Notes under the pieces: model-generated
Told to the model about the DNA's origin: nothing
Database searches by the model: none
The model's input: only the letters and a program-made list of their open reading frames with translations
Translations under genes and position numbers: made by a program
Shown: positions 227 to 31,849 of the stretch, piece after piece
Position numbering within the stretch: the first letter of the stretch is position 1
Layout of the letters: every line of letters begins with the position of its first letter
Assembly: GCF_000012925.1 (NCBI RefSeq)
Contig: NC_007517.1
Location: 1-32,000 of the forward strand
Origin: Geobacter metallireducens GS-15
GTDB lineage: Bacteria > Desulfobacterota > Desulfuromonadia > Geobacterales > Geobacteraceae
DNA length: 32,000 bases
Reading direction: 5' to 3'

Positions 227-260
227 CCATGTGTATAACTGGTCCCCGAGACTACCCTCT

Positions 261-2958: not shown

Positions 2959-3040
2959 GAAACAGTAACCGGCAGGCACGGAAGGCGAAGGCCCCTCCCC
3001 GGGAGAGGCCTTTTGCCGTTCTTTCGGCTATAGAAACACC

Positions 3041-6536
<3,496 letters not shown>

Positions 6537-6569
6537 TGACCGATATTAGTAATTATCCGAGGAAACAGA

Positions 6570-9143
<2,574 letters not shown>

Positions 9144-13385: not shown

Positions 13386-15677
13386 ATGAACCTGCGCCTC
13401 ACGATCAGGAACAAGCTTTTTCTGGCTACCCTCCTCATTCTCTTCATCTCCTACGCCATCCTTATCCAGACAACCGTCACCAGCATCAACACCTCCCTTG
13501 AAGACAACCTGGCCAAGGAACTTGCCGAGAACCTCCGCTACGCCAAAGACCAGTACTTCTCCCGGGCAGAGCACCTGAAGTACGCCCTCCTCCTCCCCGC
13601 CTCCGCGCAGACGGTGCAGGAGCGGGTCGAGAGGAGGGACAGGGTCTGGCTCCAGGAGACGGCGCGGCGCTGGAAGACCAGCCTCCCCTTCGCTGAGCCG
13701 TTCCTCTTTGTGGACCCGCAGCTGAAGGTCATCGCCGGCGATGGCGAGTCGGTGCCGGAGAATGTCCGCGAACTGGCTCCCATCGTGGAACGGGCGCTGC
13801 GGGAAAAACGGCCCGTTTCCGCAACCGAGCTGGTGAGCGACCGTTTCCTCTGCAGCGCCGGGGTCCGCGACTTCTGCTCCCGTCCTCCCTACGGAGACGG
13901 GAGCGTCATGATGATAACCGTCGTCGTCCCGGTACTGGCCGAGGGGGGGGAGGCCCTGGGCGCCATCGTGGCCGGGGAAGTCATCGACCGGGACGTGAAG
14001 CAGGCGGCCGGGACTCAGGAGATTTTCGGCAAGCAGGTGGTTGTGGCCGTCATCCGTGGCAATAGGCTTGCCCCGGCCGGCGTCAATCCTGCCTTCCCCT
14101 ACCCTGCAGCCATCGCTCCCGATATCCTCGACAAGCTGGAGCGGGGGCAGTCGTTCGGAGGCGACGTCACCATCGGGGGAAAGGCCTACAAGACCGCTAT
14201 CTCACCCCTCACCAACAGCCGCGGAGACTACGTGGGTTCCCTCTACGTGGCCCTCTCCCGGGACGATTTAAAGGGGATCCTCGGCGACAGCCTCAAGAAT
14301 ATCCTCGTATCCGCCGCCATCGGCATCGTCCTCACGTTTCTGACGGCCTTCCACGTGGCCCGCAGGTTGACCATGCCCCTGAACGCCCTTGCCGGCGGGG
14401 TGCGAAAGATCGAGAGCGGGGACTTGCGGCAACGGGTGGAGGTAACCACCGCCGACGAAGTGGGAGAGTTGGGAGAAGCCTTCAACCGCATGGCCCGAAG
14501 CCTGGAGGAGCGGGACCGGACCATCCGGGCCACGGCCCACGAACAGGCGGAGCTGAACCGCAAGCTCCAGGAGATGAATGAACACCTCGAAGAGAACGTG
14601 AGCGAACGGACAACAGCCCTGCAGATGGAGATGGGGCGTCTTGAGGCGATTCTCACCGGCATGGCTGAAGGAATTGCCGTCACCGACCGGGAGGGGAAAG
14701 TCATCCTCTTTAACCCCGCGGCCCAGCGGATCTTCGAGATGGTTCCCCCCCGGGTAATGGGGCATACCCTGGAGGAACTCTGTGCCGGCGGAGAGTTCTG
14801 TGCCCTCGCCGATTACGTCCGCACCATGAAAGAAACCGATGACTTGACCCCCCGCCGGGACGTGGAGATGTCCATGAAGGGGAAGAAACTCACGATCAGC
14901 CTTTCACCTTTCTGCGACCAGGGGGGAGCCTTGGCCGGCGTCGTCATGTCGGTGCGCGATGTGACCGGGGAAGAGGATGTGGATCGGGTGAAGACCGAGT
15001 TCATCTCCACGGTGTCCCATGAGCTCAAGACCCCCCTCACCTCCATCAAGGGTTCGCTCCAGTTCATCCACGACCGGGGGGAAGGGTTCGGCGGGATGGA
15101 GGGGGAGCTTCTCTCCGTCTGTCTCCGTAACACCGACCGGCTGATCCGGCTCGTGAACGATATCCTCGACATTGCCCGGATCGAATCGGGGCGGCTGGAG
15201 TTCGTGCCGGAGCCCCAGGATGTGCGGACCCTGGTCACCCACTCCATCGAGGAGCTGGCAGGGTACGCTCTGGAGCATGACGTCAGCGTCGAGAACCGCT
15301 GTGGCCAGGACCTCCCCCCCATCTATGGGGACCGGGACCGTCTCGTGCAGGTTCTCACCAACCTCCTCTCCAACGCGATCAAGTTTTCACCCCGGGGGGA
15401 ACGGGTGGTGGTGACGGCGGAGCGGACTTCAAACTACGTGGCCATATCCGTGGGTGACCGGGGACGGGAGATCCTGTGGTCGGATCGGGGGAAACTCTTC
15501 AAGAAATTTCAGCTGCTCGACAATTCGGACCGCCGTCAGCACGGCGGGACGGGCCTTGGGCTTGCCATTTGCAAGGAAATCGTCGAACATCACCACGGCA
15601 GGATCTTCTACAACGAAGGGACCGGGGGGGGGAACGTTTTCACCTTCACGGTTCCCGTCTATGAGGAACAATCATGA
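13386..15677 (+). CDS. Membrane sensor histidine kinase (TM - ~280-aa extracytoplasmic domain - TM - HAMP - PAS - HisKA - HATPase_c)
   Basis: Two hydrophobic segments (LFLATLLILFISYAILIQ and ILVSAAIGIVLTFLTAF). HAMP ADEVGELGEAFNRMARSL. PAS LEAILTGMAEGIAVTDREGKVILFNPAAQRIF. H-box FISTVSHELKTPLTSIKGS. N-box LLSNAIKFSP. G2 GGTGLGLAICKEIV. SD GGAGGG precedes the start. Confidence 0.93.
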   Translation: MNLRLTIRNKLFLATLLILFISYAILIQTTVTSINTSLEDNLAKELAENLRYAKDQYFSRAEHLKYALLLPASAQTVQERVERRDRVWLQETARRWKTSLPFAEPFLFVDPQLKVIAGDGESVPENVRELAPIVERALREKRPVSATELVSDRFLCSAGVRDFCSRPPYGDGSVMMITVVVPVLAEGGEALGAIVAGEVIDRDVKQAAGTQEIFGKQVVVAVIRGNRLAPAGVNPAFPYPAAIAPDILDKLERGQSFGGDVTIGGKAYKTAISPLTNSRGDYVGSLYVALSRDDLKGILGDSLKNILVSAAIGIVLTFLTAFHVARRLTMPLNALAGGVRKIESGDLRQRVEVTTADEVGELGEAFNRMARSLEERDRTIRATAHEQAELNRKLQEMNEHLEENVSERTTALQMEMGRLEAILTGMAEGIAVTDREGKVILFNPAAQRIFEMVPPRVMGHTLEELCAGGEFCALADYVRTMKETDDLTPRRDVEMSMKGKKLTISLSPFCDQGGALAGVVMSVRDVTGEEDVDRVKTEFISTVSHELKTPLTSIKGSLQFIHDRGEGFGGMEGELLSVCLRNTDRLIRLVNDILDIARIESGRLEFVPEPQDVRTLVTHSIEELAGYALEHDVSVENRCGQDLPPIYGDRDRLVQVLTNLLSNAIKFSPRGERVVVTAERTSNYVAISVGDRGREILWSDRGKLFKKFQLLDNSDRRQHGGTGLGLAICKEIVEHHHGRIFYNEGTGGGNVFTFTVPVYEEQS

Positions 15678-17200
15678 ATAACCTCAAAATCCTCATCGTC
15701 GATGACGAAGCGGACATCGCCCTCATTCTCAAGCTGCAACTGGAGGACGCCGGCTACCGCACCACCCGGGCCCGGGATGGCCTGGAAGCCCTGGAGATGC
15801 TGGCCCGGGAACACTATGACCTGATTCTCCTGGACATCCGCATGCCCCGCCTGGATGGCATTGAGGTGCTGGAGCGGATCCGGCAGGAGTGGCCCGAGCT
15901 GGTGGTGGTGATGATGACTGCCCACGGCAGCGAGGACATCGCCGTTGAGGCCATGAAGAAGGGGGCGGTGGACTATATCTCCAAGCCCTTCTCCTCCGAT
16001 GATATGAAGAAGCGGGTGGAGCGGGCCATCGAGTACAACCGGACCCGGCTCGAAAACGAGCGGCTCCAGCGGGAGGTGGAGGAAGAGCGCCGGAAGATGG
16101 AGGCGATTCTCCAGGGGATGGCCGAAGCCCTCGTGGCCGTGGACCGCCAGGGACTGGTCATGAGCATCAACCGCACTGCCGCGGAACTTTTCGGGGTTGA
16201 TGCGGCCGCGGTCCATGCCCGCCCCGTGGAGGAACTCCTCTCCGCCGCCATCCCGGCCGACCGGCTCCCCTGCCGCGTGGTGCTCGCCACGGGAGAGCCG
16301 TGCCTCGACGTGGCCTACGACCTCCGCCTGCCGGGCCGGATTGTGCCGGTCCTCTCCAGTGCCGCCCCCCTGGCGAACGCCGCCGGCGAGATGATCGGGA
16401 GCGTGGAGATCATCCGCGACATCTCGGCCCTCAAGGCCCTGGAACAGGAGCGGGAGGATTTCGTCAGCATGCTCTCCCACGACCTGAAGACCCCCATTAC
16501 CGCCATCATCGGCTCCATCGACCTGGTGAAGGAGGGGCGGCTCGGTCCAGTGAATCCGGAACAGAGCATGTACCTGGACGCCGCCGTGGAGAGCTGCGCC
16601 GAGATGGTGGACATGATCGACACCCTGCTGGATGTGCACCGCTTCGAGGCGGGGCGGATGGTGACGACCCTTGTGGAAGAAGAGCTCGGGCCGCTCCTGC
16701 AGCGGACCGTTGGCAGGTTCGAGCCGGTGGCCCGCCACAGCGGGCTCGAACTTACCCTCTCTCTACCCGGCGCTCCAGTCACCTTCCTGGTGGACCGGAA
16801 GCAATTCGGGCGACTCCTGGGCAACCTCCTCTCCAACGCCCTGAAGTTCACCACTGAGGGCGGCATCGAGGTACGGGCGGAGCTGCCGGAGAACGCCGCG
16901 GCGGCCGCACAGGGGATTACCCCCGGCGCCTACCCGACCGAGAGACTCCCCCGGGAGGGACGATACCTGCTCGTTTCGGTGAGCGACACGGGGGCCGGGA
17001 TTCCGGCCGATTCCCTCGTCACCATTTTCGACCGCTTCGTCCAGGCCCGCAACCGCAAGATGGGGAAGTCGAGCGGCACCGGGCTCGGGCTCGCCTTCTG
17101 CCGCAAGGTCATGGATGCCCACCACGGCTTCATCTGGGCCGAGAGCGAGCCTGACAGGGGGAGCACCTTCCGGATGCTTTTTCCGCTGGGGACCGACTGA
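15674..17200 (+). CDS. Hybrid response regulator-histidine kinase (REC - PAS - HisKA - HATPase_c)
   Basis: REC with ILIVDDE...LILLDIRMPRLDG...YISKPF. PAS AILQGMAEALVAVDRQG. H-box FVSMLSHDLKTPITAIIGS. LLSNALKFT, SDTGAGIP and GTGLGLAFCRKVM are present. The ATGA start/stop overlaps the upstream kinase. Confidence 0.93.
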   Translation: MNNLKILIVDDEADIALILKLQLEDAGYRTTRARDGLEALEMLAREHYDLILLDIRMPRLDGIEVLERIRQEWPELVVVMMTAHGSEDIAVEAMKKGAVDYISKPFSSDDMKKRVERAIEYNRTRLENERLQREVEEERRKMEAILQGMAEALVAVDRQGLVMSINRTAAELFGVDAAAVHARPVEELLSAAIPADRLPCRVVLATGEPCLDVAYDLRLPGRIVPVLSSAAPLANAAGEMIGSVEIIRDISALKALEQEREDFVSMLSHDLKTPITAIIGSIDLVKEGRLGPVNPEQSMYLDAAVESCAEMVDMIDTLLDVHRFEAGRMVTTLVEEELGPLLQRTVGRFEPVARHSGLELTLSLPGAPVTFLVDRKQFGRLLGNLLSNALKFTTEGGIEVRAELPENAAAAAQGITPGAYPTERLPREGRYLLVSVSDTGAGIPADSLVTIFDRFVQARNRKMGKSSGTGLGLAFCRKVMDAHHGFIWAESEPDRGSTFRMLFPLGTD

Positions 17201-17224
17201 CCACTGAGCGAGGGAACTTCGCCC

Positions 17225-18676
17225 ATGAAACTGCCGTACCACACCATGCCTTTCAGGATCGCGGCGTACTATGCCCTCTGTGCAGGGCTCTGGATCCTCC
17301 TGTCCGACCGGCTCCTCGGGGTTGCCGTTCGGGATCCCGACCTCATCACCAGCCTGGAGACGGCAAAGGGATGGCTCTTTGTGGCGGTCACCGCCCTCCT
17401 CCTCCATGTGGTGGTCCGGCGCTTCGTCGATGAGGTGATGCGCCGGGAGGAACTTCTGCGGGAGCGCAACGAAGAGCTCTGCATGGTGGAGGAGGAGCTC
17501 CGCCAGCAGCTGGACGAGTCCGAGCGGGCCCAGCAAGAACTGCGGGAGAGCGAGGAAAACTACCGGCTCCTCTTTTCGAGCAATCCGCATCCCATGTGCG
17601 TTTTCGATCTGGAGACCCTCGCCTTCCTGGAGGTGAACGGATCGGCTATCCAGCATTACGGATACAGCCGCGAAGAGTTTCTTGCCATGACCATCAAGGA
17701 CATCCGTCCCCCCGAGGATGTGCCGTCGCTCATGGCTATCGTGAAGCGGGTCGACAGCGGGCCTGACCGGGTCGGCGTTTGGCGCCACCGGAAAAAGGAC
17801 GGCACGATCATCTCCGTGGAGATCACCTCTCACATGATCGATTTCGCCGGAAGGCGTGCGAAGGTGATTCTGTGCAATGACGTAACGGAGCGGATCAGAG
17901 CGAAGGAGGAGATCCTGCGACTCAACGCCGAGTTGGAGCAGCGGGTGCGGCAACGGACCGCGGAACTGGAGCAGGCCAACCGGGAGATGGAGTCCTTCAG
18001 CTATTCCGTTTCCCACGACCTGCGGGCGCCGCTACGCCACATCGACGGGTTCAGTCGGGTGCTTCTGGAAGACTGCGGCGACCAGCTCAATCAGGAGGGA
18101 AAGGGATACCTTACCCGGATCTGCGCCGCTGCCAACCGGATGGGGCAGCTCATCGACGATCTCCTCCAGCTGGCCTCCGTGAGCCGCAGCGAACTGCAAC
18201 GGCGCCCCGTCGATTTCAGTAACCTGGCTCGGACTATAGCCTTGGAACTGAAGCAGACAGACCCGGAGCGTGAGGTTACCTTCACCATTGCCGGGGGGGT
18301 CAGCGCTCAGGGAGATCCCGTCCTCCTGCGGGTCGTGCTGGAAAACCTCCTGGGTAACGCCTGGAAATACACGGGGAAGAATCACCGCACCGCAATCGAG
18401 TTCGGGGCAGTCGAGGGGGAGGAGGGACGGGTCTACTTCGTGCGGGATAACGGGGTCGGCTTCGACATGACCTACGTGGGCAAGCTTTTCACCCCCTTCC
18501 AGCGGCTTCACGCCATGGACGAGTTCGAGGGAACCGGCATCGGGCTGGCCACGGTGCGCCGGGTGGTGGAACGGCACGGCGGGCGGGCCTGGGCCGAAGG
18601 GACAATCGGCGCCGGCGCCACCTTTTACTTTACCCTGGGAGAATCTCACCGCCTTGCGGAGGGCGACGAAGGATAA
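17225..18676 (+). CDS. Membrane sensor histidine kinase (2 TM - coiled coil - PAS - HisKA - HATPase_c)
   Basis: N-terminal hydrophobic helices (IAAYYALCAGLWILL and WLFVAVTALLLHVVV). PAS YRLLFSSNPHPMCVFDLETLAFLEVNGSAIQHYGY. H-box FSYSVSHDLRAPLRHIDGF. LLGNAWKYT, RDNGVGFD and GTGIGLATVRRVV are present. Confidence 0.92.
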   Translation: MKLPYHTMPFRIAAYYALCAGLWILLSDRLLGVAVRDPDLITSLETAKGWLFVAVTALLLHVVVRRFVDEVMRREELLRERNEELCMVEEELRQQLDESERAQQELRESEENYRLLFSSNPHPMCVFDLETLAFLEVNGSAIQHYGYSREEFLAMTIKDIRPPEDVPSLMAIVKRVDSGPDRVGVWRHRKKDGTIISVEITSHMIDFAGRRAKVILCNDVTERIRAKEEILRLNAELEQRVRQRTAELEQANREMESFSYSVSHDLRAPLRHIDGFSRVLLEDCGDQLNQEGKGYLTRICAAANRMGQLIDDLLQLASVSRSELQRRPVDFSNLARTIALELKQTDPEREVTFTIAGGVSAQGDPVLLRVVLENLLGNAWKYTGKNHRTAIEFGAVEGEEGRVYFVRDNGVGFDMTYVGKLFTPFQRLHAMDEFEGTGIGLATVRRVVERHGGRAWAEGTIGAGATFYFTLGESHRLAEGDEG

Positions 18677-18679
18677 GCG

Positions 18680-20365
18680 ATGGACGATTTGCACCTGAGG
18701 ATACTGCTGGCGGAGGACTCCGAGGAGGATGCCTTTCTGCTTCTGCGGGAGCTGGAACGGGGGGGATACACGGTGGAGTGCGAGCGGGTGCAGACCCGCT
18801 CCGCCATGAAAAAGGCCCTGGTCTCCCGGCAATGGGACATGGTCATTTCCGACTACCGGATGCCCCGGTTCTCCGCGCCCCAGGCCCTGGAAACCCTCAA
18901 GGAGAGCGGTCTCGACCTCCCCTTCATCATCGTCTCCGGCAAGATCGCCGAGGATATGCTCGTGGATGCCATGCGGGCCGGCGCCAACGACTACTTCATG
19001 AAGGGGAACCTGTCGCGGCTCATTCCTGCCATCGAGCGGGAGCTGCGGGAGGCTGCCGAGCGGCGCATCCGGCGCCGGGCCGAGCGGGCCATCCGCCAGG
19101 GGAAAATGGAGTGGGAGGCGGCTTTCGACGCCGTGTCGGACCTGGTCCTTCTCACCGACCTCTACAGCACGGTCATCCGCTGCAACAACCGGGTCATCGA
19201 GGCCTTCAACGCCACCTACAGCGACATCCTGGGGAGGAACATCACCGAGCTTTTCTACGGCAGCCCCGACGCCGGGGAGAGCATTTTCGATCAGTGCACC
19301 GATCTGAAGGCCGATAACGGCGATGTCCGCTTTCCCAAACTCACGGGATGGTACAAGGCCTCCTGCTTTCCCATGCACCCTACCGAAAACGAACACGGCT
19401 TCGTCTACGTCATCAAGGACGTCACCAAGCGGAAAAAGATGGAGGAAGAGAAGGAGCTGGCCACCCTGGAGCTTCTCCGGAGCCGCCAGGCCCTCAGGGA
19501 GAATCTGGAGGAGATGAAGCGGGCCAACATGGAGCTGGGGCGCCTGAACGCCGCCAAGAACACCGTCATCGGCATGGCCTCCCATGAACTGAAGACCCCG
19601 CTTACCTCCATCATCGGTGGGCTCCAGTTTCTCTTCCACTACAGCGGCCTGGAGATGACCCCGGAGCAGAAGGAGATGATGGAGTCGGTCTACGAGGGGG
19701 TGACCCAGCTGCGGGGGATCGTGGACGATCTCCTCTCCATCTCCCGCATCGAGACCAAGGGATTCGCCGTCACCAAGCGGATGGTGAACCTCCTCAATCT
19801 CTGCCGGGAGGTGCGCCATACCCTGCTCCTTCCCCTGTCGGAGCGGGACATCGAGCTCTCCATTGCCGAGGACACCTGCAGCATTCCGGCCGACGAGGGG
19901 TTCTGCCGGCTCGTGACCCGGAACCTCCTGGAGAACGCCATCAAGTTCACCGCCGACGGGGGACGGATCACCATCAGCGGCGAGCTCACCTCCCTGGACG
20001 ACCTCCTCCCCCAGGCCGATTCGCTCCGCTGCTTCTACCGGGAGTTCCCCTCCAACATCGAGGGGCACCCTGCCTTCTATCGCCTCGACATCGCCGACAC
20101 GGGAATCGGCATCCCCCCCGAGGAGCGGGTGCGGATCTTCGAGAAATTCTACGGCGTCGGCGACCTCGCCTACCACTCCTCCGGCAAGACCGGCTTCATG
20201 TCCAAGGGGTCAGGGCTCGGCCTCTCCATCGTCAAGGGGATCATGGACGCCCACGGCGGCATGGTCTGGGTGGGGCCCGGGGAAAACGGCTCGGGAAGCG
20301 TCTTCTCCCTCCTCTTCCCCATGGACAACACCTGTGTCATCCCGCCCCGCGAAGGGAGACGGTAG
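18680..20365 (+). CDS. Hybrid response regulator-histidine kinase (REC - PAS - HisKA - HATPase_c)
   Basis: REC with ILLAEDSEED...MVISDYRMPRFSA...DYFMKG. A PAS region follows. H-box VIGMASHELKTPLTSIIGG. LLENAIKFT, ADTGIGIP and GSGLGLSIVKGIM are present. It starts 3 nt after the upstream stop. Confidence 0.92.
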   Translation: MDDLHLRILLAEDSEEDAFLLLRELERGGYTVECERVQTRSAMKKALVSRQWDMVISDYRMPRFSAPQALETLKESGLDLPFIIVSGKIAEDMLVDAMRAGANDYFMKGNLSRLIPAIERELREAAERRIRRRAERAIRQGKMEWEAAFDAVSDLVLLTDLYSTVIRCNNRVIEAFNATYSDILGRNITELFYGSPDAGESIFDQCTDLKADNGDVRFPKLTGWYKASCFPMHPTENEHGFVYVIKDVTKRKKMEEEKELATLELLRSRQALRENLEEMKRANMELGRLNAAKNTVIGMASHELKTPLTSIIGGLQFLFHYSGLEMTPEQKEMMESVYEGVTQLRGIVDDLLSISRIETKGFAVTKRMVNLLNLCREVRHTLLLPLSERDIELSIAEDTCSIPADEGFCRLVTRNLLENAIKFTADGGRITISGELTSLDDLLPQADSLRCFYREFPSNIEGHPAFYRLDIADTGIGIPPEERVRIFEKFYGVGDLAYHSSGKTGFMSKGSGLGLSIVKGIMDAHGGMVWVGPGENGSGSVFSLLFPMDNTCVIPPREGRR

Positions 20366-20370
20366 ACACC

Positions 20371-21297
20371 ATGGCATCGGCCCTTTCGCTTCGCGGCCTC
20401 ACCAAGCGCTTCGGCTCCCTCACGGCCGTGGATTCCTTCTCCCTGGAGGTGGAGCGGGGGACCATCTTCGCGCTTCTCGGCCCCAACGGCGCCGGGAAAA
20501 CCACCATCATCCGGATCCTCACTACGCTGCTGCGCCCCGACGCCGGCACGGCCCTGGTGGAGGGGTTCGACGTGCGCCAGCAGGGGAAGGAGGTGCGGCG
20601 CCTCATCGGCGTGGTCCCCCAGGAGAACAACCTGGACCGCTACCTCACCGCCCGGGAGAACCTGGTGATGCAGGCCCGGCTCCACGGCATGGGAGCCGCC
20701 GAGACGAACGGGCGGGTGGACGAGCTTCTGGAGCTGGTGGGGCTTACGGGGCGGCGCAACGACTTTCCCGACACCTTTTCCGGCGGCATGCAGCGGCGCC
20801 TCGTGGTGGCCCGGGCACTGGTCCACCGCCCCCGGGTCCTCTTTCTCGACGAGCCCACCACCGGTCTTGACCCCCAGTCCCGCCGGGCAGTCTGGGACTA
20901 TGTGGACTCCCTTAAGGATTCCATGACCATCTTTCTCACCACCCACTACATGGACGAGGCCGACGCCCTCTGCGACCGGATCGTCATCATGGACCACGGC
21001 CGGGTGCTCGTGGACGGGAGCGCGGCCCGGCTCAAGGAGCGGATGGCCCACGCCCACTGCTACGAGCTCCGGTTCCGGGCCAACGCCGACCACTACGAAA
21101 CGATCCTGGCGGGTTTCCCCTTTGTCCGCTCCCTCCAGCGGACCGGCGACCTCTTTCGCCTCTCCCTGGCCGGCGAGGAAAGCCTCAAGCCCCTCATGGA
21201 CGCCATCGGCACCGACGACATCCGCACGATCTGTCTCCGGGAGCCGACCCTGGAGGATGTGTTCATCGAGCTGACGGGGAAAGAGGTGCGGGAATAG
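20371..21297 (+). CDS. ABC transporter ATP-binding protein (ABC-2/DrrA-like exporter ATPase)
   Basis: Walker A GPNGAGKTT, Q-loop, signature FSGGMQRRL, Walker B VLFLDEPTTGLD and H-loop LTTHYMDEA are present. The C-terminal extension is typical of the DrrA/NatA type. Confidence 0.93.
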   Translation: MASALSLRGLTKRFGSLTAVDSFSLEVERGTIFALLGPNGAGKTTIIRILTTLLRPDAGTALVEGFDVRQQGKEVRRLIGVVPQENNLDRYLTARENLVMQARLHGMGAAETNGRVDELLELVGLTGRRNDFPDTFSGGMQRRLVVARALVHRPRVLFLDEPTTGLDPQSRRAVWDYVDSLKDSMTIFLTTHYMDEADALCDRIVIMDHGRVLVDGSAARLKERMAHAHCYELRFRANADHYETILAGFPFVRSLQRTGDLFRLSLAGEESLKPLMDAIGTDDIRTICLREPTLEDVFIELTGKEVRE

Positions 21298-22052
21298 TGT
21301 TCAAGGGTGCCTTCTCCATCTGGAAGCGGGACATGCTGGTGCTCCGCCGCAGCCTCTTCTCTGAGCTCGTGGCGGTGGTGGCGTCCCCCCTCACCTTCTA
21401 CCTGGCCTTCGGCTTCGGCCTCCGGGGGTACATCGCCGACGTGGAGGGGGTTCCCTACACCGTCTTCATGGCGCCGGGGCTCATCACCATGACCGCCGTG
21501 TCGGCCGCCTTCGACGAGAGCGCCTGGAGCATGTGGTTCCACCGCAAGGTGCAGCGCACCATCGAGGCCTACCGGGTCACCCCCATCACGGTCTACGACA
21601 TCGTCATCGGCAAGATCATCTCCGGCTTCAGCCAGGGGGCCCTCAAGGGGGTGGCGGTGGCCACCGTGATCTTCCTCCTGACCGGGGTCCGGTTCGACCC
21701 GGCCCACCTGGCCGGATACCTCGCCTTCATCGTCCTCGGCTCCATGGTCTTTTCCTGCGCCGGCACCGTCTGCGGAACCCTCCTGGACAAGCCCGAGACC
21801 ATCGGCAAGGTCCAGGCGGTGGTCATCATGCCCCTCATCTTCCTCTCCGGGGTCTTCTTCCCCGTCTCCTCCTATCCCGAGGCCATGCGTTCCGCCGTCA
21901 TGCTCATCCCCACCACGGCCCTCTTCGAGGGGTCGCGCCGGGCGCTCCTGGCGGGTGCCTTCGACGGAGGGCTCATCGGCATCCTCGCCGTGACCGCCCT
22001 GGTCGCCTTTGCCGCCACGGTGGCCATCTTCAACCGGAAGATGGCGGAGTAG
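21297..22052 (+). CDS. ABC-2 type transporter permease
   Basis: 251 aa with about 6 hydrophobic segments. The GTG start overlaps the upstream TAG by 1 nt (TAGTG) and follows the SD-like AAGAGGTG. The N-terminus WKRDMLVLRRSLFSELV is typical of ABC-2 permeases. Confidence 0.85.
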   Translation: MFKGAFSIWKRDMLVLRRSLFSELVAVVASPLTFYLAFGFGLRGYIADVEGVPYTVFMAPGLITMTAVSAAFDESAWSMWFHRKVQRTIEAYRVTPITVYDIVIGKIISGFSQGALKGVAVATVIFLLTGVRFDPAHLAGYLAFIVLGSMVFSCAGTVCGTLLDKPETIGKVQAVVIMPLIFLSGVFFPVSSYPEAMRSAVMLIPTTALFEGSRRALLAGAFDGGLIGILAVTALVAFAATVAIFNRKMAE

Positions 22053-22138: not shown

Positions 22139-23209
22139 ATGGCTGAAGAATTCATACCCAAATGGGTTGCCTGGGAAACCACCCAGAAGTGCAACCTCAA
22201 GTGCGTCCACTGCCGCTGTTCCTCTGACCTGACCTCTTCCGAGGGGGATTTCACCACCGAGGAGGGAAAGAAGCTCCTGAAGGAGATCGCTGACTTCTCC
22301 AAACCGGTGATCGTCCTCTCCGGCGGCGAGCCCCTCATGCGCAAGGACATCTTCGAGCTGGCCGAGTACGGCACCTCCCTGGGGCTGCGCATGTGCATGG
22401 CCACCAACGGCGCCCTGGTCACCGACGAGATCTGCCAGAAGATGCGCAAGGCCGACATCAAGATGGTGTCGCTTTCCCTGGACGGCAGCACCGCCGCGGT
22501 CCACGACGACTTCCGCCAGTGCCCCGGCGCCTTCGAAGGGGTAGTGCGGGCCGCGGAGATCTTCCGGCGCAACGGCCAGAAATTCCTCATCAACTCCTCC
22601 TTCACCAAGCGCAACCAGCACGACATCGCCAACACCTTCAAGCTGGCCAAGAGCCTCGGCGCCACCGCCTGGTACATGTTCATGATCGTTCCCACGGGGC
22701 GCGGCGAGGAGATCATGAACGAGCTCATCACCAAGGAGGACTACGAGGAGATTCTGGAGTGGCACTACCAGCAGGAGAAGCTGGAGGACGAGATCCTCAT
22801 GCGTCCCACCTGTGCCCCCCACTACTACCGGATGGTCCCCATGCGGGCGAAAGAAGAAGGGGTCAAGTTCGAGCGCCGGTCGCTGACCTTCTCCACCGGC
22901 GGCGGCAAGGGGTGCATTGCGGCCCAGACCATCTGCCTCATCGACTGCTTCGGCAACGTGAAACCCTGCTCCTACTTCCACCGCACCGCCGGCAACGTGA
23001 AGGAGACCCCCTTCCGGGAGATCTGGGAGAATTCGGAGATCTTCAAGGATCTCAGGAACTTCAAGGCCTACAAGGGGAAGTGCGGCGAGTGCGAGTTTCT
23101 CAATGTCTGCGGCGGGTGCCGGGCCAGGGCCGATGCGGTGCATGGGGATTACATGGCGGAAGAGCCGTTCTGTAATTATGTGCCGATACGCCTTCAAAAG
23201 AAGGCGTAG
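22139..23209 (+). CDS. Radical SAM / SPASM-domain enzyme, AhbC/AhbD/NirJ-like (possible heme-pathway tetrapyrrole-modifying enzyme)
   Basis: N-terminal [17 protein letters not shown] carries the CxxxCxxC radical-SAM cluster in the context typical of NirJ/Ahb proteins. GGEPL is present. The C-terminal Cys-rich SPASM-like region reads CSYF...[17 protein letters not shown]. It lies directly upstream of hemE. Confidence 0.75.
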
Positions 23210-24716: not shown

Positions 24717-26162
24717 TCACGCCTTCTCGGTTCCTCTCTTCGCGACAAGGCCCCCCCGCTTCATCCCTCGCAAAAACGCATCCACCACCTGGGGATCGAA
24801 CTGGCTCCCCTTCCACCGCTCAATCTCCGCCAGGGCCGTTTCCCGGGGCATCCCCCGGCGGTAGGGTCGGTCGGTGGTCATGGCGTCGAAGGAGTCGGCC
24901 ACGGTGATGATCCGCGCCACCAGGGGAATCTCCTCCCCCTTGAGGCCGCTGGGGTAGCCGGTGCCGTCGTAGAATTCGTGGTGATAGAGGATGGCGTTCA
25001 TGACCGAGGAAAAGAAATCGGAGGTGGAGATGATCTCCATCCCCTTGAGGGAGTGGGCCTGCATGATCTCTAATTCCTCCGGGGTGAGGGAGCTCTCCTT
25101 GCGGAGAATGGCGTCGGGAATGCCGATCTTGCCGATGTCGTGGAGAATGGCTGCCATCTCCACCCGGGAGACGGTTTCCGGCGGGAGCCCCATCTCCCGG
25201 GCGATGCCGAGGGCGTAGCGGGCCACCCGGTCGATGTGGCCCCGGGTGTAGGAGTCCCGGGCCTCCACCGCCGCCGCCAGGGTCTTGAGGGCCGACTGGT
25301 AGCCGCTGATGATCTGGTCGGTCATGGTGTTGAAGGCGGTGCCGAGGTTCTCCAGTTCGTCCCCCGTGGTGAGGGTGGCCCGGGCCGTGTAGTTGCCGGC
25401 GCTGAGGCTGCCGGCAATGCCGTGGAGGTGGGCCACCGGCGCCAGGACCATCCGGCGCAGGAGGTAGTAGAGGGTTCCCATCACCATGGCCATGATGCCG
25501 GCGCCGGCCAGGGCAAAGAGGATGCGGGCCTTGACGATCTGCCGCTCCGCATCCTGGAGCGGCAGGGCGACGCTCAGCCCCCCCCGCACCTCGCCCACCT
25601 TGTATCCCTGCTGCAGGTGACAGGTGAGGCATGACTTCTCCACCACCAGGGGGATGATCCGCTGGTAGGCGGCATGGTCGCCGTCCCGCACGATGCCGGC
25701 GATGCCGTCGCGGCTGGCGGTGAAGCCGCGCCGCTCGAACTGCCGCAGTGCCTCGGACTCGAAGGGGGTCGGCTTGTTTGCGGGGTTCAAGGGCTTGAGG
25801 CTTGAGAGGTGGAAGCGGTAGAGCCCTTTGCGTTGGGCGTATTCGGAGAGCTTACGGATGGCCAGGGCCGGGTTGTGGAAGACGTAGTCCCGTCCCTCCT
25901 TGTCGGTGATGCCGGAACCGGGCAGGTAGGGGTTCGGCTCCACCCCGGGGGCCTGGCGGATGTAGATCCCCTCATGCTCCGAGATCCAGGCCCGGGTGAT
26001 GACCACCTGCTGGAGCAGCGCCGTGCTTTGGCGGTCCACGTGGTCGTAGATGGCCTTTTGGGCCTGCTCGTACATGAAGAAGAAAAGAATGCCGATCGTT
26101 ACGAAGACCGTGATGCCGACGGCCACGAGAAACTTGCGGGCAAGGGCCAGCCTGATAGCCAT
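24717..26162 (-). CDS. HD-GYP domain c-di-GMP phosphodiesterase with an N-terminal TM and a DUF3365-like CxxCH (heme c) sensor domain plus HAMP
   Basis: N-terminal TM FLVAVGITVFVTIGILFFF. Sensor block EKSCLTCHLQQGYKVGEVRGGLSVALPL (CxxCH). Second TM, then HAMP. HD-GYP motifs: RGHIDRVARYA, LHDIGKIGIPD and HHEFYDGTGYPSGL. Confidence 0.9.
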   Translation of the reverse strand: MAIRLALARKFLVAVGITVFVTIGILFFFMYEQAQKAIYDHVDRQSTALLQQVVITRAWISEHEGIYIRQAPGVEPNPYLPGSGITDKEGRDYVFHNPALAIRKLSEYAQRKGLYRFHLSSLKPLNPANKPTPFESEALRQFERRGFTASRDGIAGIVRDGDHAAYQRIIPLVVEKSCLTCHLQQGYKVGEVRGGLSVALPLQDAERQIVKARILFALAGAGIMAMVMGTLYYLLRRMVLAPVAHLHGIAGSLSAGNYTARATLTTGDELENLGTAFNTMTDQIISGYQSALKTLAAAVEARDSYTRGHIDRVARYALGIAREMGLPPETVSRVEMAAILHDIGKIGIPDAILRKESSLTPEELEIMQAHSLKGMEIISTSDFFSSVMNAILYHHEFYDGTGYPSGLKGEEIPLVARIITVADSFDAMTTDRPYRRGMPRETALAEIERWKGSQFDPQVVDAFLRGMKRGGLVAKRGTEKA

Positions 26163-26343: not shown

Positions 26344-27297
26344 ATGTCAGAAAAAACCGCTGTCCTCCTCCTTCAGATGGGGGGGCCCGACTCCCTGGAC
26401 GCCGTGGAGCCCTTCCTCGTCAACCTCTTTTCCGACCGGGACATCATCCGGATTGGCCCCGCCTTCCTGCAGCCCTTTATCGCCCGGCTCATCGCCAAGA
26501 AGCGGGCCACGCCGGTGGAGCGGAAGTATGAGGAGATCGGCGGCAAGTCCCCCATCCGGGAGCTGACCGAGGCCCAGGCGAAGGCCCTGGAGGAGGTTCT
26601 GGGGGACGGGTACTGCTGCTTCACGGCCATGCGCTACTGGAAGCCCACCACGGTGGAGGCCCTGGCGGCCATCCGGCGGGAGGGAATCACGCGGATCATC
26701 GCCCTCTCCCTCTATCCCCACTACTCCCGGGCCACCACCGGCTCCAGCGTGAACGAGCTGAAGCGGGTCCTGGCCCAATCGGGCGCCACCTTTGACGTCA
26801 CCTACGTGGATCGCTTCTTTGACCATCCCCGCTACATCGAGGCCCTGGCCGAGAAAATAAAGGAAGGGCTCGACGACTTCCACCCCCTGGCCGAGGTGCA
26901 GATCCTCTTTTCGGCCCATTCCCTTCCCCAGTCCTTTATCGACGAAGGTGACCCCTACCTCTCCCATATCGAGGAGACGGTGCGGCTCGTTATGGAGCGG
27001 TTCGAGGGGGTCACCTACCACCTGGCCTTCCAGTCCCGGGCCGGGCCGGTCAAGTGGCTGGAGCCCTCCACCGAGGAGATACTGGAGTACCTGGCGGCCC
27101 ACCAGGTGAAGAACCTCCTCATGGTTCCCCTCTCCTTCGTGTCGGACCACATCGAGACCCTCCACGAGATCGACATCGAGTACGCCATGCTGGCCCACCG
27201 GCTGGGGTACGCCAAATTCCGCCGCTCCCCCTCCCTGAACACCTCTCCCCTCTTCATCGACTGCCTGGCGGACCTGGTGCGGAAGGCGGGGATGTGA
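26344..27297 (+). CDS. hemH: Ferrochelatase
   Basis: Motifs seen: [40 protein letters not shown], and the C-terminal [20 protein letters not shown]. Confidence 0.96.
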
Positions 27298-27302
27298 GCC
27301 GG

Positions 27303-27488
27303 ATGGAAAAGGAAACGAAAGCCTGCGCCATCTGCGGAAATGAATTCACCCCCGGAGAGGAGCGCACCCCCTACGAGGAGGCGGGGGAGTGGCTGGCGAC
27401 GGAGCTCTGGAGCGATGCCGGCACCCTCTGCCCCCAATGCCTGGACAACCGGGCGAAACTCGCCATGATGTACGTTATCGACAGGTGA
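27303..27488 (+). CDS. Small (61 aa) double-CxxC zinc-ribbon protein, hypothetical
   Basis: MEKETKACAICGNEF...TLCPQCLDNRAKLAMMYVIDR has CxxC at residues 8-11 and 43-46. Third-position GC bias matches the neighbours. It starts 5 nt after the hemH stop and ends 6 nt before the next ATG. The tracked ORF 27054.. is an upstream extension that overlaps hemH. Confidence 0.55.
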   Translation: MEKETKACAICGNEFTPGEERTPYEEAGEWLATELWSDAGTLCPQCLDNRAKLAMMYVIDR

Positions 27489-27494
27489 ACGGAT

Positions 27495-28313
27495 ATGGAA
27501 CAGACAACCATCGACGGAATTGCCCTCACGCTGGCCGGACCGGTCCAGCTTCCCCTGAAGTGGGTCGGCCAGGATGAACTTCTCCAGCAGCTCCTGGCCG
27601 CCTGGATGGTCATCGACGACCGGGACATACCCTTCAGTCCTCGCCTCATCGGCAAGCCGGGGGTGGGGAAGACCACCCTCGCCTACGCCGCGGCGCGGCG
27701 CCTGGGGCGCCCCGTCTACCTCTTCCAGGCCACCATGGACACCCGCCCCGAGGATCTCATCATCACCCCGGTCATCGGCCCCGACGGGAAGATCCAGTAC
27801 GCCGCCTCGTCCCTCGTTTCCGCCATGGTGAAGGGAGGGGTCCTCATCCTCGACGAGGGGAACCGGATGAGCGAGAAGGCCTGGGCCTCCCTGGCGCCGC
27901 TCCTGGACGACCGGCGTTACGTGGAGTCCATCATCACGGGCCTCAGGGTCCCGGCCCACCGGGACTTCCGGATCGTGGTCACCATGAACGAGGACGCCTC
28001 CACCTTCGAGGTCCCCGAGTACATCCACTCCCGGCTCCAGCCCCAGATCTTCATCGACTTCCCCGAGGCCGACGAGGAACTCATGATCCTCAAGGAGAAC
28101 CTCCCCTTCGCCCCGACCCGGATCCTCAAGTACGTGGTGGATTTCCTCCAGCGGGCCCATGCCGCCGACGAGCTCTACTCGGTCCGCGACGGCATCAACA
28201 TCGCCCGCTACGCCCTCAAGATGATGGCCGCCACCGAACGGGACGCCGCCGAGCTCCTCCCCCTTGCCGTGGAGCGGGTGCTGGGGGACGAGGCGCTGCG
28301 GTATCTGGCGTAA
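27495..28313 (+). CDS. MoxR-like AAA+ ATPase (AAA_5; size and layout of the CbbQ/NirQ/NorQ/GvpN group)
   Basis: 272 aa. Walker A GKPGVGKTTLA, Walker B VLILDEGNRM, and the LAPLLDDRRY and FRIVVTMNED blocks typical of the MoxR/CbbQ class. Confidence 0.85.
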   Translation: MEQTTIDGIALTLAGPVQLPLKWVGQDELLQQLLAAWMVIDDRDIPFSPRLIGKPGVGKTTLAYAAARRLGRPVYLFQATMDTRPEDLIITPVIGPDGKIQYAASSLVSAMVKGGVLILDEGNRMSEKAWASLAPLLDDRRYVESIITGLRVPAHRDFRIVVTMNEDASTFEVPEYIHSRLQPQIFIDFPEADEELMILKENLPFAPTRILKYVVDFLQRAHAADELYSVRDGINIARYALKMMAATERDAAELLPLAVERVLGDEALRYLA

Positions 28314-28316
28314 GCC

Positions 28317-30281
28317 ATGCCCCACCGCCTCCACCTGGAACAGTTCGGCCCGGTTCACGCCCTCCCCGTCCTCCACTACCGGATGGAGTTCGCCTGGCTC
28401 GTGCGCGAGGCGGTGCACCGGGTGAAGCCCGACTGCATCGCCCTGGAGCTGCCGCCGACCCTGGAAGCACCCTTCCGGCGCGCCGTGGCACGGCTGCCGG
28501 AGGTGTCGGTGCTCCGCTACGGCACCAAGGTGAAGAAAGGGCACGAGGAAACGGTCTACCTCCTCGTGGAGCCGGCGGACCCCCTGGTGGAGGGGGCACG
28601 GCTCGGCCGGGAACTGGGGATCCCCGTGGCACTGGTGGACGTGGATACCGATTCCTATCCCCTCCACCACGAAGCGCTTCCCGACCCCTACGCCATCCAC
28701 CGGCTTGGCCTCACCCCCTACTACGAGGAGTACCGGAAGGGGTGCGCGACGCTCTCCCACGGTCCCGAGGACCGGCGGCGGGAGCAGGGGATGGCCTTCC
28801 GGCTCCAGGAGCTTTCCCGAGAGCACGGCCTCATCCTTTTCATCTGCGGGATGTTCCATCTGGAGCGGGTGAAGGAGGAATTCGGCCGCCCCCAGGCCGC
28901 GCCCCTGGAACGGGTCCGGCGCGAGAACGTGGCCCTCTTCAATCTCCACCCCGATTCCTGCCGAGAGATCCTCGGGGAGTTTCCTTTCCTCTCGGCAGTG
29001 TACGAGCTGCGCCGGGACACTTTGCCACCGGAGCCTGTAGACGGCAGTGCCACGCTGCGCAAACGGTATAGCGTATTGGAACTGATCGAGGGGGGGAAGC
29101 GGGAAATCCCCGAGGAGGAGCTCCTGCGCCACGCCGTGGAGCGGAGCGCCCGCCACACGGGGCGGGAGGGGGAGTTTCCGGACCGGCAGCGGATCATATA
29201 CCATCTTTTCAAAGAGGCGGCCCGCCACTACCGGCAGGAGACCGGCGAGCCGCTCCACCTCTGGCAGAAGCGGGCCTTCTTCCGCTTTACCCGCAACTAC
29301 GCCTTGACCGGCGGCATGCTCCTCCCCGATCTCTTCCAGCTCCTAGCCGCGGCCCGCGGCTGCATCGACGACAACTTCGCCTACGCCTTCTGGCGCCTGG
29401 CCACCCACTACCCCTGGCAGCGGACCGACGCCGACCTCCCTACCCTCGCCATCTCTCCCGAGGAAATCTGGGGGGGCGCCCGCCGGATCCGCTTCCGTCC
29501 CCGGCAGCAGCGGCAGAAGGGGCTGTCGCACCTGGGGTTCCTGAAGCGGAAGAAGGAGAAGCGCCCCGGCGAATGGCTGGAGGGGTTCGACAATCCCGCC
29601 ATCTGCTCCTACCCGCCGGAGGACGTGGTGATCGAGGATTATGGCCGGTTCCTGAAGAAAAAGGGGGCCATGCAACTCTCCGAGGAGCTCTCCCGCACCG
29701 AGCCGTTCACGGCGTCGCTTCTGGACGGGATCGACATGCGGGAGACCCTGCGCAATCTGGCCGACGGCCGGATCTACGTGCGGGAGAACCAGCGGGCCAC
29801 GGGGGGCGTCGGCGGGGTGGTGGTGATCTTTGACGAGGACCGGGACAACCGCAGGTTCCCCTACCGGATGACCTGGCTCGGGGAGCACGATCAGGAATCG
29901 GACATGGCCTTTTACGCCACCTCCCCGGCCGACAACATCGTGGGCCCCGGCATCTGCCGCTGTGAGTACGGCGGCTTCCTCCTCTCCTACCCTCCCCGGC
30001 GCATGATGGACGTCTGGCACGACCCGGACTACGCCTTTGCCCGCTCGAAAGCCGAGGTGCTCCTCCTGGCGGCCCTGGACTACTCCCCCGAGAAGCACGT
30101 GGTCTACGCGGCGCCCCGTCCCCCCCGGAGCATGTTCCGCCAGCTGGCGGCCCGCATGGGGAAGAAGATCGTCTACATCCCCCTCGGCTCCCTGTCGCCG
30201 GTGAAGCTCAAGGGGCTGCGGGTCCTCCACATCCTCCATGGCCACGACAAGCGGGAGATCGCGAAGAACTATGTCTGGTGA
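28317..30281 (+). CDS. Large hypothetical protein with an N-terminal TraB/PrgY/GumN/TIKI-like domain (possibly DUF5682-like); C-terminal ~460 aa unassigned
   Basis: 654 aa, starting 3 nt after the AAA+ stop. The ordered motifs resemble the TraB/TIKI superfamily: LPVLHYRMEF (His), PDCIALELP (Glu), GIPVALVDVD, EDRRREQGMAFRL and ILFICGMFHL (GxxH). I see no VWA MIDAS motif (DxSxS). Confidence 0.7.
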   Translation: MPHRLHLEQFGPVHALPVLHYRMEFAWLVREAVHRVKPDCIALELPPTLEAPFRRAVARLPEVSVLRYGTKVKKGHEETVYLLVEPADPLVEGARLGRELGIPVALVDVDTDSYPLHHEALPDPYAIHRLGLTPYYEEYRKGCATLSHGPEDRRREQGMAFRLQELSREHGLILFICGMFHLERVKEEFGRPQAAPLERVRRENVALFNLHPDSCREILGEFPFLSAVYELRRDTLPPEPVDGSATLRKRYSVLELIEGGKREIPEEELLRHAVERSARHTGREGEFPDRQRIIYHLFKEAARHYRQETGEPLHLWQKRAFFRFTRNYALTGGMLLPDLFQLLAAARGCIDDNFAYAFWRLATHYPWQRTDADLPTLAISPEEIWGGARRIRFRPRQQRQKGLSHLGFLKRKKEKRPGEWLEGFDNPAICSYPPEDVVIEDYGRFLKKKGAMQLSEELSRTEPFTASLLDGIDMRETLRNLADGRIYVRENQRATGGVGGVVVIFDEDRDNRRFPYRMTWLGEHDQESDMAFYATSPADNIVGPGICRCEYGGFLLSYPPRRMMDVWHDPDYAFARSKAEVLLLAALDYSPEKHVVYAAPRPPRSMFRQLAARMGKKIVYIPLGSLSPVKLKGLRVLHILHGHDKREIAKNYVW

Positions 30282-30344: not shown

Positions 30345-31571
30345 ATGTCCTGGTTTGCCAACCTGAAGATCAGCACGAAGTTCAACATCATCCTGTCGCT
30401 CCTTCTGGTGTTCGTCTTCCTGGCGGCGGCCTTCTTCGTCTACCATCGGGAAAGGGCGCTCATCGACCGAATCGCCGTGGACAACGCCCGGAGCATTGCC
30501 CGGCAGATCATCGAGACCCGTGACTACATCTCCAGCGTGGTAAAGGGGGAGCCCAACGAGAACTACAACCTGGTTCCCCAGGTGGTGGCCACCAACGTGG
30601 CCAAGCGGCTGACCAGGGGGAGCGACTACTATGTGCGGCAGGTTTCGCTCCGGTACCGCAACCCCGACAATCGCCCCGATCCGTACGAGGAAGAGATGCT
30701 CAAGCTCTTCGCGGCAAAGAAGAGCACGGAAACCTACCGCATCGTCCGGACCGACAAGGAGCAGAGCTTTCGCTACATGCTCTCGATGGTGGCGGAGAAG
30801 AGCTGCCTCGAATGCCACGGCCGCTACGAGGATGCGCCACCCTTTGTCCGGGCCCGCTTCCCCAAGGGGCACTTCTCCTACAACTACCAGGTCGGCGAGG
30901 TGATCGGCGCCGTGTCGGTCTCGATCCCCCTGGCCGACCTCTATCGCGAGGCCGGGACCGACTTCAGACTCGATCTGGCCACCCGGGGGCTCACCTTCTG
31001 TCTCATCATTTTCGTGATGGGATTCCTTGTCCGGCGCGCCATCATTGACCCGCTCCGGCAGGTTTCCGCCTCCATCACCCATGTCGCTGCCACCGGCAGT
31101 TTCGGCGACCGGATTCCCCAGCGCTCCCGGGACGAGATCGGCGAACTCGTGGCCGCCTTCAACGGCATGATGGAGGAGTTGGACCTCAAGACCCGCCAAC
31201 GGCTAGAGTCCGAGGACCGCTACCGCAATGTCCTGGAGATGGCCCAGTCGGCCATTGTCACCTTCCTGGCCGACGGCAAACTCATCATCACCAATCGTCG
31301 CGCTGAGGACCTCTTCGGGCTGCCCAAAGGTGAACTCCTCGGGGCATCGATCTACACCTTCCTGGCCGACGGCGACGGGGTGCGGGAGGGGATCTCGGCA
31401 TACCTGCGCGACGGGACGGGGGGATTGGTTGGTGAGACGACTTCCCGGAAAATACGGGACATCAGGGGGAGGATAACCGAGGTTGAGATGGCCCTCTCCG
31501 TTTCACGGTCGGACCATAATCCCCTCTTTACGGCAATCCTGAGGGAGCACAACCAACACTCGGTCTACTGA
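30345..31571 (+). CDS. Membrane sensor protein: TM - DUF3365-like CxxCH (heme c) domain - TM - HAMP - PAS, with no recognisable output domain
   Basis: TM ILSLLLVFVFLAAAFFVY. Sensor block AEKSCLECHGRY...YQVGEVIGAVSVSIPL (CxxCH codons at 30804-30818). Second TM LTFCLIIFVMGFLV. HAMP RDEIGELVAAFNGMMEEL. PAS YRNVLEMAQSAIVTFLADGKLIITNRRAEDLFG. The protein ends TAILREHNQHSVY* right after the PAS core. Confidence 0.85.
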   Translation: MSWFANLKISTKFNIILSLLLVFVFLAAAFFVYHRERALIDRIAVDNARSIARQIIETRDYISSVVKGEPNENYNLVPQVVATNVAKRLTRGSDYYVRQVSLRYRNPDNRPDPYEEEMLKLFAAKKSTETYRIVRTDKEQSFRYMLSMVAEKSCLECHGRYEDAPPFVRARFPKGHFSYNYQVGEVIGAVSVSIPLADLYREAGTDFRLDLATRGLTFCLIIFVMGFLVRRAIIDPLRQVSASITHVAATGSFGDRIPQRSRDEIGELVAAFNGMMEELDLKTRQRLESEDRYRNVLEMAQSAIVTFLADGKLIITNRRAEDLFGLPKGELLGASIYTFLADGDGVREGISAYLRDGTGGLVGETTSRKIRDIRGRITEVEMALSVSRSDHNPLFTAILREHNQHSVY

Positions 31572-31620: not shown

Positions 31621-31849
31621 ATTGATAATCCCTCCACCATGCCGTTGGCTTGTAAGGGCCTCACAGCGAGTTCCTTACAGGTGGCAGGCTCTGTACCGCT
31701 TCAGGCAAATCCCACATGATGGGGCAGCACACCACGGTAGAAAGAACCCCCGTCTTACGTAAATGTTCCGCTGGGGCATATCAGCCTGACGCGCATGGCA
31801 GAGAGAATTCTAATATTTGTAGCTAGTTTAGCCTCCTCTCCCGGATAAA

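Follow-up and report, generated by a model that had tools for sequence, protein, structure and literature searches.

Two adjacent genes of Geobacter metallireducens GS-15, Gmet_0021 and Gmet_0022, represent a new variant within the MoxR/DUF5682-type systems that has no VWA protein, and they give no evidence of a new heme-handling system. They lie in the first 32,000 nucleotides (nt) of contig NC_007517.1 (assembly GCF_000012925.1), the stretch analysed here, which we call the window. Gmet_0021 (27495-28313, plus strand) encodes an AAA+ ATPase of the MoxR class with 272 amino acids (aa), and Gmet_0022 (28317-30281, plus strand), the second gene of the pair, encodes a soluble 654-aa partner composed of three parts. 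The pair comprises an intact MoxR-class motor and a tightly linked soluble partner that carries a probable TIKI-type domain, hydrolase-type residues and a conserved, novel C-terminus. We consider it probable (roughly 0.6) that the two proteins make up a self-contained cytoplasmic module for protein remodelling and hydrolytic processing, being a stripped-down sister of the YehL-YehM pair.

Two further plus-strand genes precede the pair. These are the ferrochelatase gene hemH (26344-27297; Pfam Ferrochelatase, E 1e-116; TIGR00109, 1e-101) and Gmet_0020 (27303-27488), a 61-aa open reading frame (ORF) for an acidic zinc-ribbon protein with the arrangement CxxC...CxxC (C8, C11, C43 and C46). The public locus tags Gmet_0020, Gmet_0021 and Gmet_0022 thus denote the 61-aa, 272-aa and 654-aa ORFs, respectively. 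A preliminary description of this DNA had reported the four-gene order hemH, Gmet_0020, Gmet_0021 and Gmet_0022 with gaps of 5, 6 and 3 nt, and the ORF coordinates confirmed it exactly. A consensus-level scan found no plus-strand terminator-like site from hemH to the end of Gmet_0022, which fits co-transcription and proves nothing.

A conserved gene pair in bacteria and Asgard archaea

We have compared the gene order at 80 Geobacterales loci and at loci from distant lineages. The AAA+ gene was found directly upstream of the 654-aa gene in 67 of the 80 Geobacterales loci, with the exceptions being mostly truncated contigs. Most of the distant lineages sampled had the same order: two Promethearchaeota genomes of the Asgard group (L081-83 and L096), Myxococcota (L094), Neochlamydia (L088) and the loci L084, L085/86, L095 and L161, several unclassified metagenomic contigs carrying it as well. 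In the distant loci the two genes often overlap (-11, -14 and -17 nt). Members of the Gmet_0022 family are also present in Eremiobacterota.

The surroundings of the pair showed no comparable constancy. We surveyed the 99 ORFs that flank the pair at 25 Geobacterales loci devoid of hemH. They yielded 141 Pfam families, none of which occurred more than four times; there was no VWA family among the recurrent ones, and no recurrent heme gene. A VWA gene was found neither in the window nor in the annotated distant loci. The adjacency of the AAA+ and 654-aa genes therefore goes beyond chance, hemH and the small ORF being merely lineage-specific neighbours, and the conserved unit, extending from bacteria to Asgard archaea, is the pair. 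The preliminary description had proposed a trio that included the zinc-ribbon gene. That proposal did not hold, since this gene was absent upstream of the AAA+ gene in all 49 AAA-containing loci without hemH.

The family is essentially chromosomal. Members were found in none of 50,697 phage records, in one of 72,556 plasmids and in two of 2.9 million viral contigs. The sole plasmid copy of the pair (L088, 138151-140864) resides on pS13 of Neochlamydia sp. S13, a non-mobilizable replicon of 231 kb. The housekeeping-type genes on pS13 (ttcA, surE, queG) suggest that it is a chromid-like replicon.

The ATPase and its three-part partner

Gmet_0021 matched Pfam AAA_5 with an E value of 4.1e-20 and 72.6 bits (cut-off 22). 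The sequence contains the Walker A motif (G53-T60, nt 27651-27674), Walker B (D120/E121), sensor 1 (N165) and sensor 2 (R231), with R180 as a candidate arginine finger. A phmmer search of the PDB returned the AAA modules of midasin (2.6e-22), NorQ (5e-8) and CbbQ (6e-7) as the nearest solved relatives, together with MoxR 2r44. With the AAA_5 match and every motif present, Gmet_0021 is a MoxR-family AAA+ ATPase, in agreement with the MoxR/CbbQ/NorQ class assigned to it previously. It falls below the equivalogs of the CGN subfamily: TIGR02640 (GvpN) requires 266.8 bits and gave 39.5, and the matches to NorQ and CbbQ had only ~32-36 bits.

The partner ATPases of Asgard archaea, Chlamydiota (Neochlamydia), Myxococcota and other lineages share 58-65% identity with Gmet_0021, the corresponding partner proteins being 31-52% identical to Gmet_0022. 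The identity of Gmet_0021 to other AAA_5/MoxR/NorQ genes across the plasmid collection was at most 35%, and at most 32% for those of norQ type. Because of this gap between 58-65% across lineages and at most 35% to other plasmid AAA_5 genes, Gmet_0021 forms a separate, very strongly conserved MoxR lineage. A homologue search started from Gmet_0021 retrieved near-identical Geobacteraceae sequences alone and added little.

The search for known domains in Gmet_0022 gave no match in Pfam, NCBIfam or PADLOC, even at E≤10. The family is nonetheless large, comprising ~3,000 clusters at 90% identity and at least 1,561 at 50% identity (E≤1e-3). No transmembrane (TM)-like segment was found in the protein (maximum KD19 hydropathy value, 1.23). 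We have counted residue conservation over 57 diverse homologues, and the same alignment was used to build an AlphaFold2 (AF2) model with a predicted local distance difference test score (pLDDT) of 91 and a predicted TM-score (pTM) of 0.71. This model superseded a run on 20 close homologues, which gave a pLDDT of 42 and was unusable.

Residues 1-235 (28317-29021, plus strand) probably form an alpha/beta domain of TraB/PrgY/TIKI type, an assignment based on four independent lines: Pfam matches of homologues, the DUF5682/YehM profiles, the PrgY profile and Foldseek. Among the 57 homologues, DUF5682 was matched by 14 (weakly, best 4.9e-8), TraB_PrgY_gumN (PF01963) by three (best 7.5e-4) and DUF5694 by three. 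In profile-profile comparison the Gmet_0022 family matched YehM of E. coli, which is a genuine member of DUF5682. When hhalign was run against an alignment of six DUF5682 sequences, residues 11-349 aligned to positions 3-333 (98.8%, E 9e-17). The comparison with PrgY of pCF10 gave 92.4% and an E value of 5e-7 over 181 columns. In the AF2 model strands and helices alternate over residues 8-210, and in a Foldseek search of the viral library BFVD its sole significant match was a "TraB family protein" (E 1e-4, probability 1.0). Against the PDB, Foldseek returned nothing at E≤1e-3, and the TIKI-fold proteins ChaN, Bcr135 and RRSP were not recovered. Canonical DUF5682 proteins gave no direct TraB signal in Pfam and a PrgY match of just 51%; hence, the TraB assignment rests on the comparison of the Gmet_0022 family itself with PrgY.

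Active hydrolases of the TIKI superfamily have a His-Glu pair, a basic residue and a second His (PMC6254334). Gmet_0022 has this set in the same order: the His-Glu pair is H20 (conserved in 51/57 homologues) and E44 (53/57), the basic residue is R155 (53/57) of an RExxMA motif, and the second His is H181 (49/57) of a GxxH motif. The four residues are in register with their counterparts in the motifs of PrgY and YehM, so that the TraB-TIKI motifs read from the sequence in the preliminary description were substantiated. We take H20, E44, R155 and H181 as candidate catalytic residues.

Residues 236-349 (29022-29363, plus strand) correspond to a hairpin and a helical region that, by hhalign, is common to DUF5682 and YehM. 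The homology goes no further. Full-length homology to DUF5682 (~700 positions) was not found, the C-terminal halves aligning at 0.3-0.4% only. Accordingly, of the ~460 aa previously regarded as unassignable, the ~300 C-terminal residues remain so, and residues 236-349 can now be placed as homologous to DUF5682.

Residues 350-654 (29364-30278, plus strand) are family-specific and end in an alpha/beta domain. Conservation within the protein is highest in these ~300 residues, with invariant G471, E523, G553, H638 and R646 and the motifs SYPPED, DGxDxRET, GEHxxESD and GPGIxR. The pattern HxxE...H (H524, E527 and H638) could be a metal site, judging from its conservation. The region has no Pfam family, and no PDB match was obtained for it by sequence (with both profiles) or by fold. 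We have also considered it as a fused or degenerate VWA, SWIM, DUF4132, DUF5691, DUF5682 C-terminus, AAA or duplicated TraB domain, and hhalign gave at most 1% for each of them.

Gmet_0022 is not a VWA protein. It had no Pfam VWA match, hhalign against the YehP-type VWA gave less than 1%, and Foldseek returned no VWA fold; the previous view of a partner without VWA or MIDAS was thus borne out.

Proposed mode of action and alternative explanations

In the processing module that we propose, the ATPase ring would bind Gmet_0022, most likely via the C-terminal domain, which would take the place of the absent VWA adaptor. The ring would spend ATP on remodelling a cytoplasmic protein client or on gating access to it, and the TraB/TIKI-like domain would then cleave a peptide or ester bond of that client. 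A more specific version, which we put forward as a tentative and rather unlikely one, is a new ATP-dependent processing enzyme in which a MoxR ring is joined to a cytoplasmic His/Glu hydrolase of TIKI type with no VWA adaptor in between. The C-terminal domain of the hydrolase (E523, H638 and R646) would act as a second catalytic or metal site or as a ring-docking adaptor, and the client of the enzyme would be one that Geobacter, Myxococcota, Chlamydiae, Eremiobacterota and Asgard archaea share. Such a shared client, if real, would explain the ~60% identity of the motor across two domains of life.

Several observations weigh against the processing module. The physical interaction of Gmet_0021 with Gmet_0022 is inferred from gene order, and the role given to the C-terminal domain is conjectural. 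In G. sulfurreducens PCA the cluster is broken just between the two genes of the pair, so that hemH, a protoglobin gene, the zinc-ribbon gene and the AAA+ gene stand together and the 654-aa gene is located elsewhere, by a transposase gene; the Tll0287 sensor gene that follows the 654-aa gene has moved along with it. In several other loci the pair is separated by unrelated genes, namely those for MNT/HepT, an MFS (major facilitator superfamily) transporter, HsdM or a SNF2 helicase with a SWIM motif. Co-translation is therefore not required. Gmet_0022 itself stays under the Pfam thresholds for TraB (PF01963) and DUF5682 (PF18934): the full-length protein had no match to PF18934, and its N-terminal 200 aa reached 12.7 bits (E 0.041) with a gathering threshold of 26 bits. 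Thus, from the Pfam matches anticipated in the preliminary description, AAA_5 was recovered directly, and TraB and DUF5682 only through homologues and profile-profile comparison. Moreover, some members of the TIKI superfamily, among them ChaN and the C1/C2 domain of PMT, are not enzymes (PMC6254334). Finally, a literature search found no biochemical, genetic or expression work on any member of the Gmet_0021/0022 family.

The last but one of these points leads to an alternative that we regard as doubtful, in which the pair is a MoxR-type chaperone for the maturation of a metallocofactor or a complex, as with NorQ/NorD, CoxD and CbbQ/CbbO. The TraB-like domain would in that case be a non-catalytic binder of a ligand or metal, comparable to ChaN, and the non-enzymatic TIKI-fold proteins provide the precedent (PMC6254334). 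NorQ and CbbQ being the nearest solved ATPases besides midasin is consistent with such a role, as is the fact that MoxR proteins are in general maturation factors (PMC3893208). Metal-related neighbours also occur, although scattered: hemH in some Geobacteraceae, SufE in Myxococcota (L094) and ferritin in 2 of the 99 flanking ORFs. However, no metalloenzyme gene is conserved as a neighbour, and the VWA/MIDAS adaptor, the usual client-binding element of these chaperones, is missing. The retention of the hydrolase-type His/Glu/Arg/His set in ~90% of diverse members likewise argues for the processing module rather than for a binding domain.

A machine for heme or iron handling or quality control, in which the zinc-ribbon protein, the AAA+ ATPase and the TraB-like protein would form a trio functionally coupled to ferrochelatase, was the reading favoured in the preliminary description, and we now find it very improbable. 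The short gaps that follow hemH in G. metallireducens speak for it, as do the contiguity of hemH, the zinc-ribbon gene and the AAA+ gene in G. sulfurreducens, with the protoglobin gene in between, and the presence upstream of hemH of hemE and an AhbD-like radical-SAM gene, both recognised by profile search. Genes for Tll0287-type sensors with heme-c (CxxCH) motifs flank the cluster on both sides. ChaN, a member of the TIKI superfamily, binds heme. Against this, hemH was found within 6 kb of the pair in only 21 of the 80 Geobacterales loci, which all come from a subset of the Geobacteraceae, and at no distant locus examined (those of Asgard archaea, Myxococcota, Chlamydiota and further groups). 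Across related genomes there was no conserved synteny with hemH or any other heme gene, nor did a heme gene recur among the 99 flanking ORFs. In many Geobacteraceae the distances to hemH and to the AAA+ gene are loose (90-1100 nt), and in G. sulfurreducens the 654-aa gene is no longer at the hemH locus. These synteny data disfavour the heme reading; the preliminary description had itself named a trio without linkage to heme genes among relatives as a refuting outcome, and this was in part observed. That hemH adjoins the pair is an accident of the local gene arrangement and constitutes no evidence of a heme role, and for the annotation of Geobacter genomes a position by hemH gives no ground for a label of heme or cytochrome biogenesis.

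The distribution of the zinc-ribbon gene also counts against the heme reading. Among the 80 Geobacterales loci a Gmet_0020-type gene was found only in the hemH-linked ones; wherever hemH is gone, the small gene is gone from the pair, and elsewhere it stands behind a radical-SAM gene. Gmet_0020 is nevertheless a real gene. Its 17 orthologues keep the four Cys, EAGEWL and NRAxLxMMY, indels are in frame, and the differences by codon position (1982/2088/3399) are dominated by third-position changes. It is a lineage-specific neighbour that lies outside the conserved module. A PADLOC match to Csf1 (E 2e-5) was judged to be generic zinc-ribbon similarity.

In 60 metagenome loci anchored on the small protein, most had no adjoining hemH or ATPase gene. 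Outside the hemH context the zinc-ribbon gene abuts the 3' end of a gene of ~560 aa with Radical_SAM_N2 and Radical_SAM domains (L105, L108, L122-L124, L139, L144 and L152, around position 5001), which itself follows a gene for a NuoG/formate-dehydrogenase-like molybdopterin oxidoreductase. Gmet_0020-like proteins may be small accessories of Fe-S or Fe enzymes.

The weakest alternative is a role in conflict or anti-phage defence, with the NTPase as a sensor or switch and a TIKI-type protease as the effector under its control. The combination of NTPase and peptidase resembles that of many defence systems, some Geobacterales genomes have MNT/HepT toxin-antitoxin, HsdM and SWIM-SNF2 genes inserted into the pair or close to it, and canonical DUF5682 systems occur on plasmids beside restriction-modification genes. 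This alternative is very improbable, as Gmet_0022 has no PADLOC model and Gmet_0021 only weak generic P-loop matches, the family is absent from phages and nearly so from plasmids and viral contigs, the ATPase is ~60% identical between bacteria and archaea, unlike fast-evolving defence genes, and the neighbours are variable and of housekeeping type (ribosomal proteins, purA, hisS).

The wider surroundings of hemH deserve some remarks of their own. The radical-SAM/SPASM gene by hemE (22139-23209, plus strand) had AhbD as its best match (TIGR04545), with 450 bits against an equivalog cut-off of 500. An AhbD-like gene is odd beside hemE and hemH, the classical heme route being encoded in the same genome. 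The two Tll0287-like (PF11845) sensor genes lie at 24717-26162 (minus strand) and 30345-31571 (plus strand); one of the products has HAMP and HD-GYP domains and the other HAMP and PAS domains. The CxxCH motif in both (CLTCH and CLECH) suggests heme-c-based sensing. A Protoglobin/PsiE-domain gene is found between hemH and the zinc-ribbon gene on a contig of G. sulfurreducens type (L159:4811-5713, minus strand), where it runs opposite to its neighbours, and the corresponding ~1-kb gaps of L055, L066 and L072 may hold this protoglobin gene too.

At the start of the window dnaA, dnaN, recF, gyrB and gyrA occupy 231-9143 (plus strand), so the cluster is ~27 kb from the origin. Four successive genes for PAS-containing histidine kinases or hybrid response regulators (13386-20365, plus strand) are followed by an ABC-2 transporter pair (20371-22052). 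A full-length 6S RNA (SsrS, RF00013) was detected at 31627-31807 on the minus strand, with 82.3 bits and a gathering score of 46.4, and a strong terminator-like hairpin is located on the same strand at 31620-31590.

Comparison with known systems

The known members of the TraB/PrgY/GumN/TIKI (EreA/ChaN-like) group are membrane-anchored or secreted, stand-alone proteins that have no AAA+ partner. Gmet_0022 differs from them in each respect: PrgY has a strong TM segment and Gmet_0022 has none, and the latter carries ~420 residues beyond the TraB/TIKI domain.

The closest known system is YehL-YehM of E. coli, with YehP, YehQ and YehI, itself uncharacterised. Literature searches on DUF5682, on MoxR with TraB/TIKI, on DUF4132 with MoxR and SWIM, and on Gmet_0018-0023 returned nothing relevant, yehL and yehM receiving only incidental mentions. 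Both YehLM and the Gmet pair have an AAA_5 gene just upstream of the gene for a protein of 650-800 aa, the first ~330 residues of which are homologous and contain the His/Glu/RExxMA/GxxH motifs. In six lineages (E. coli, Iodobacter, Agrobacterium, Deinococcus, Bacillus and Methylosinus) canonical DUF5682 loci showed the order AAA_5, DUF5682 and VWA_CoxE, together with SWIM and DUF4132 or DUF5691 genes. The upstream AAA_5 gene is the only partner that the Gmet pair shares with them, as it lacks genes for VWA_CoxE (YehP), SWIM (YehQ) and DUF4132/DUF5691 (YehI). The two ATPases also differ, Gmet_0021 having 272 aa and YehL ~362 aa, with merely generic similarity (blastp E 0.096; hhalign 95%). The C-terminal ~300 residues of Gmet_0022 have no relation to the helical C-terminal part of DUF5682 proteins, and DUF5682 genes are common on plasmids, whereas the Gmet pair is not.

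A SNF2 helicase gene of ~1,166 aa was found tightly placed between the AAA+ and 654-aa genes in 5 of the 80 Geobacterales loci (L013:2475-5975, L052:2477-5989, L058:1425-4928, L074 and L042), its product carrying an N-terminal SWIM-like CxCx(n)CxH motif. With respect to the SWIM protein of canonical DUF5682 systems, this insert could be a coincidence or an optional partner.

In its compactness the Gmet pair resembles CbbQ/CbbO and NorQ/NorD of the CGN subfamily, in which a ~270-aa AAA_5 ATPase gene is directly followed by the gene of a 600-770-aa partner. However, unlike CbbO and NorD, Gmet_0022 has no VWA or MIDAS domain, and unlike the CbbQ and NorQ loci, those of the Gmet pair show no context of Rubisco or NO-reductase genes. 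MoxR ATPases generally co-occur with a nearby gene for a VWA-domain cofactor (PMC3893208), and the Gmet_0021/Gmet_0022 family is an exception to this rule. A large MoxR family without VWA would show another way of coupling MoxR motors, usually understood to act via VWA/MIDAS adaptors, to their clients. The family spans several bacterial phyla as well as Asgard archaea, and the partner of its ATPase offers instead a TIKI/TraB-type hydrolase domain, as predicted here, and an unclassified, highly conserved domain. The pair would also serve as a minimal, two-protein entry point to the YehLMPQ/DUF5682 systems, which E. coli shares with many other bacteria and which are just as uncharacterised.

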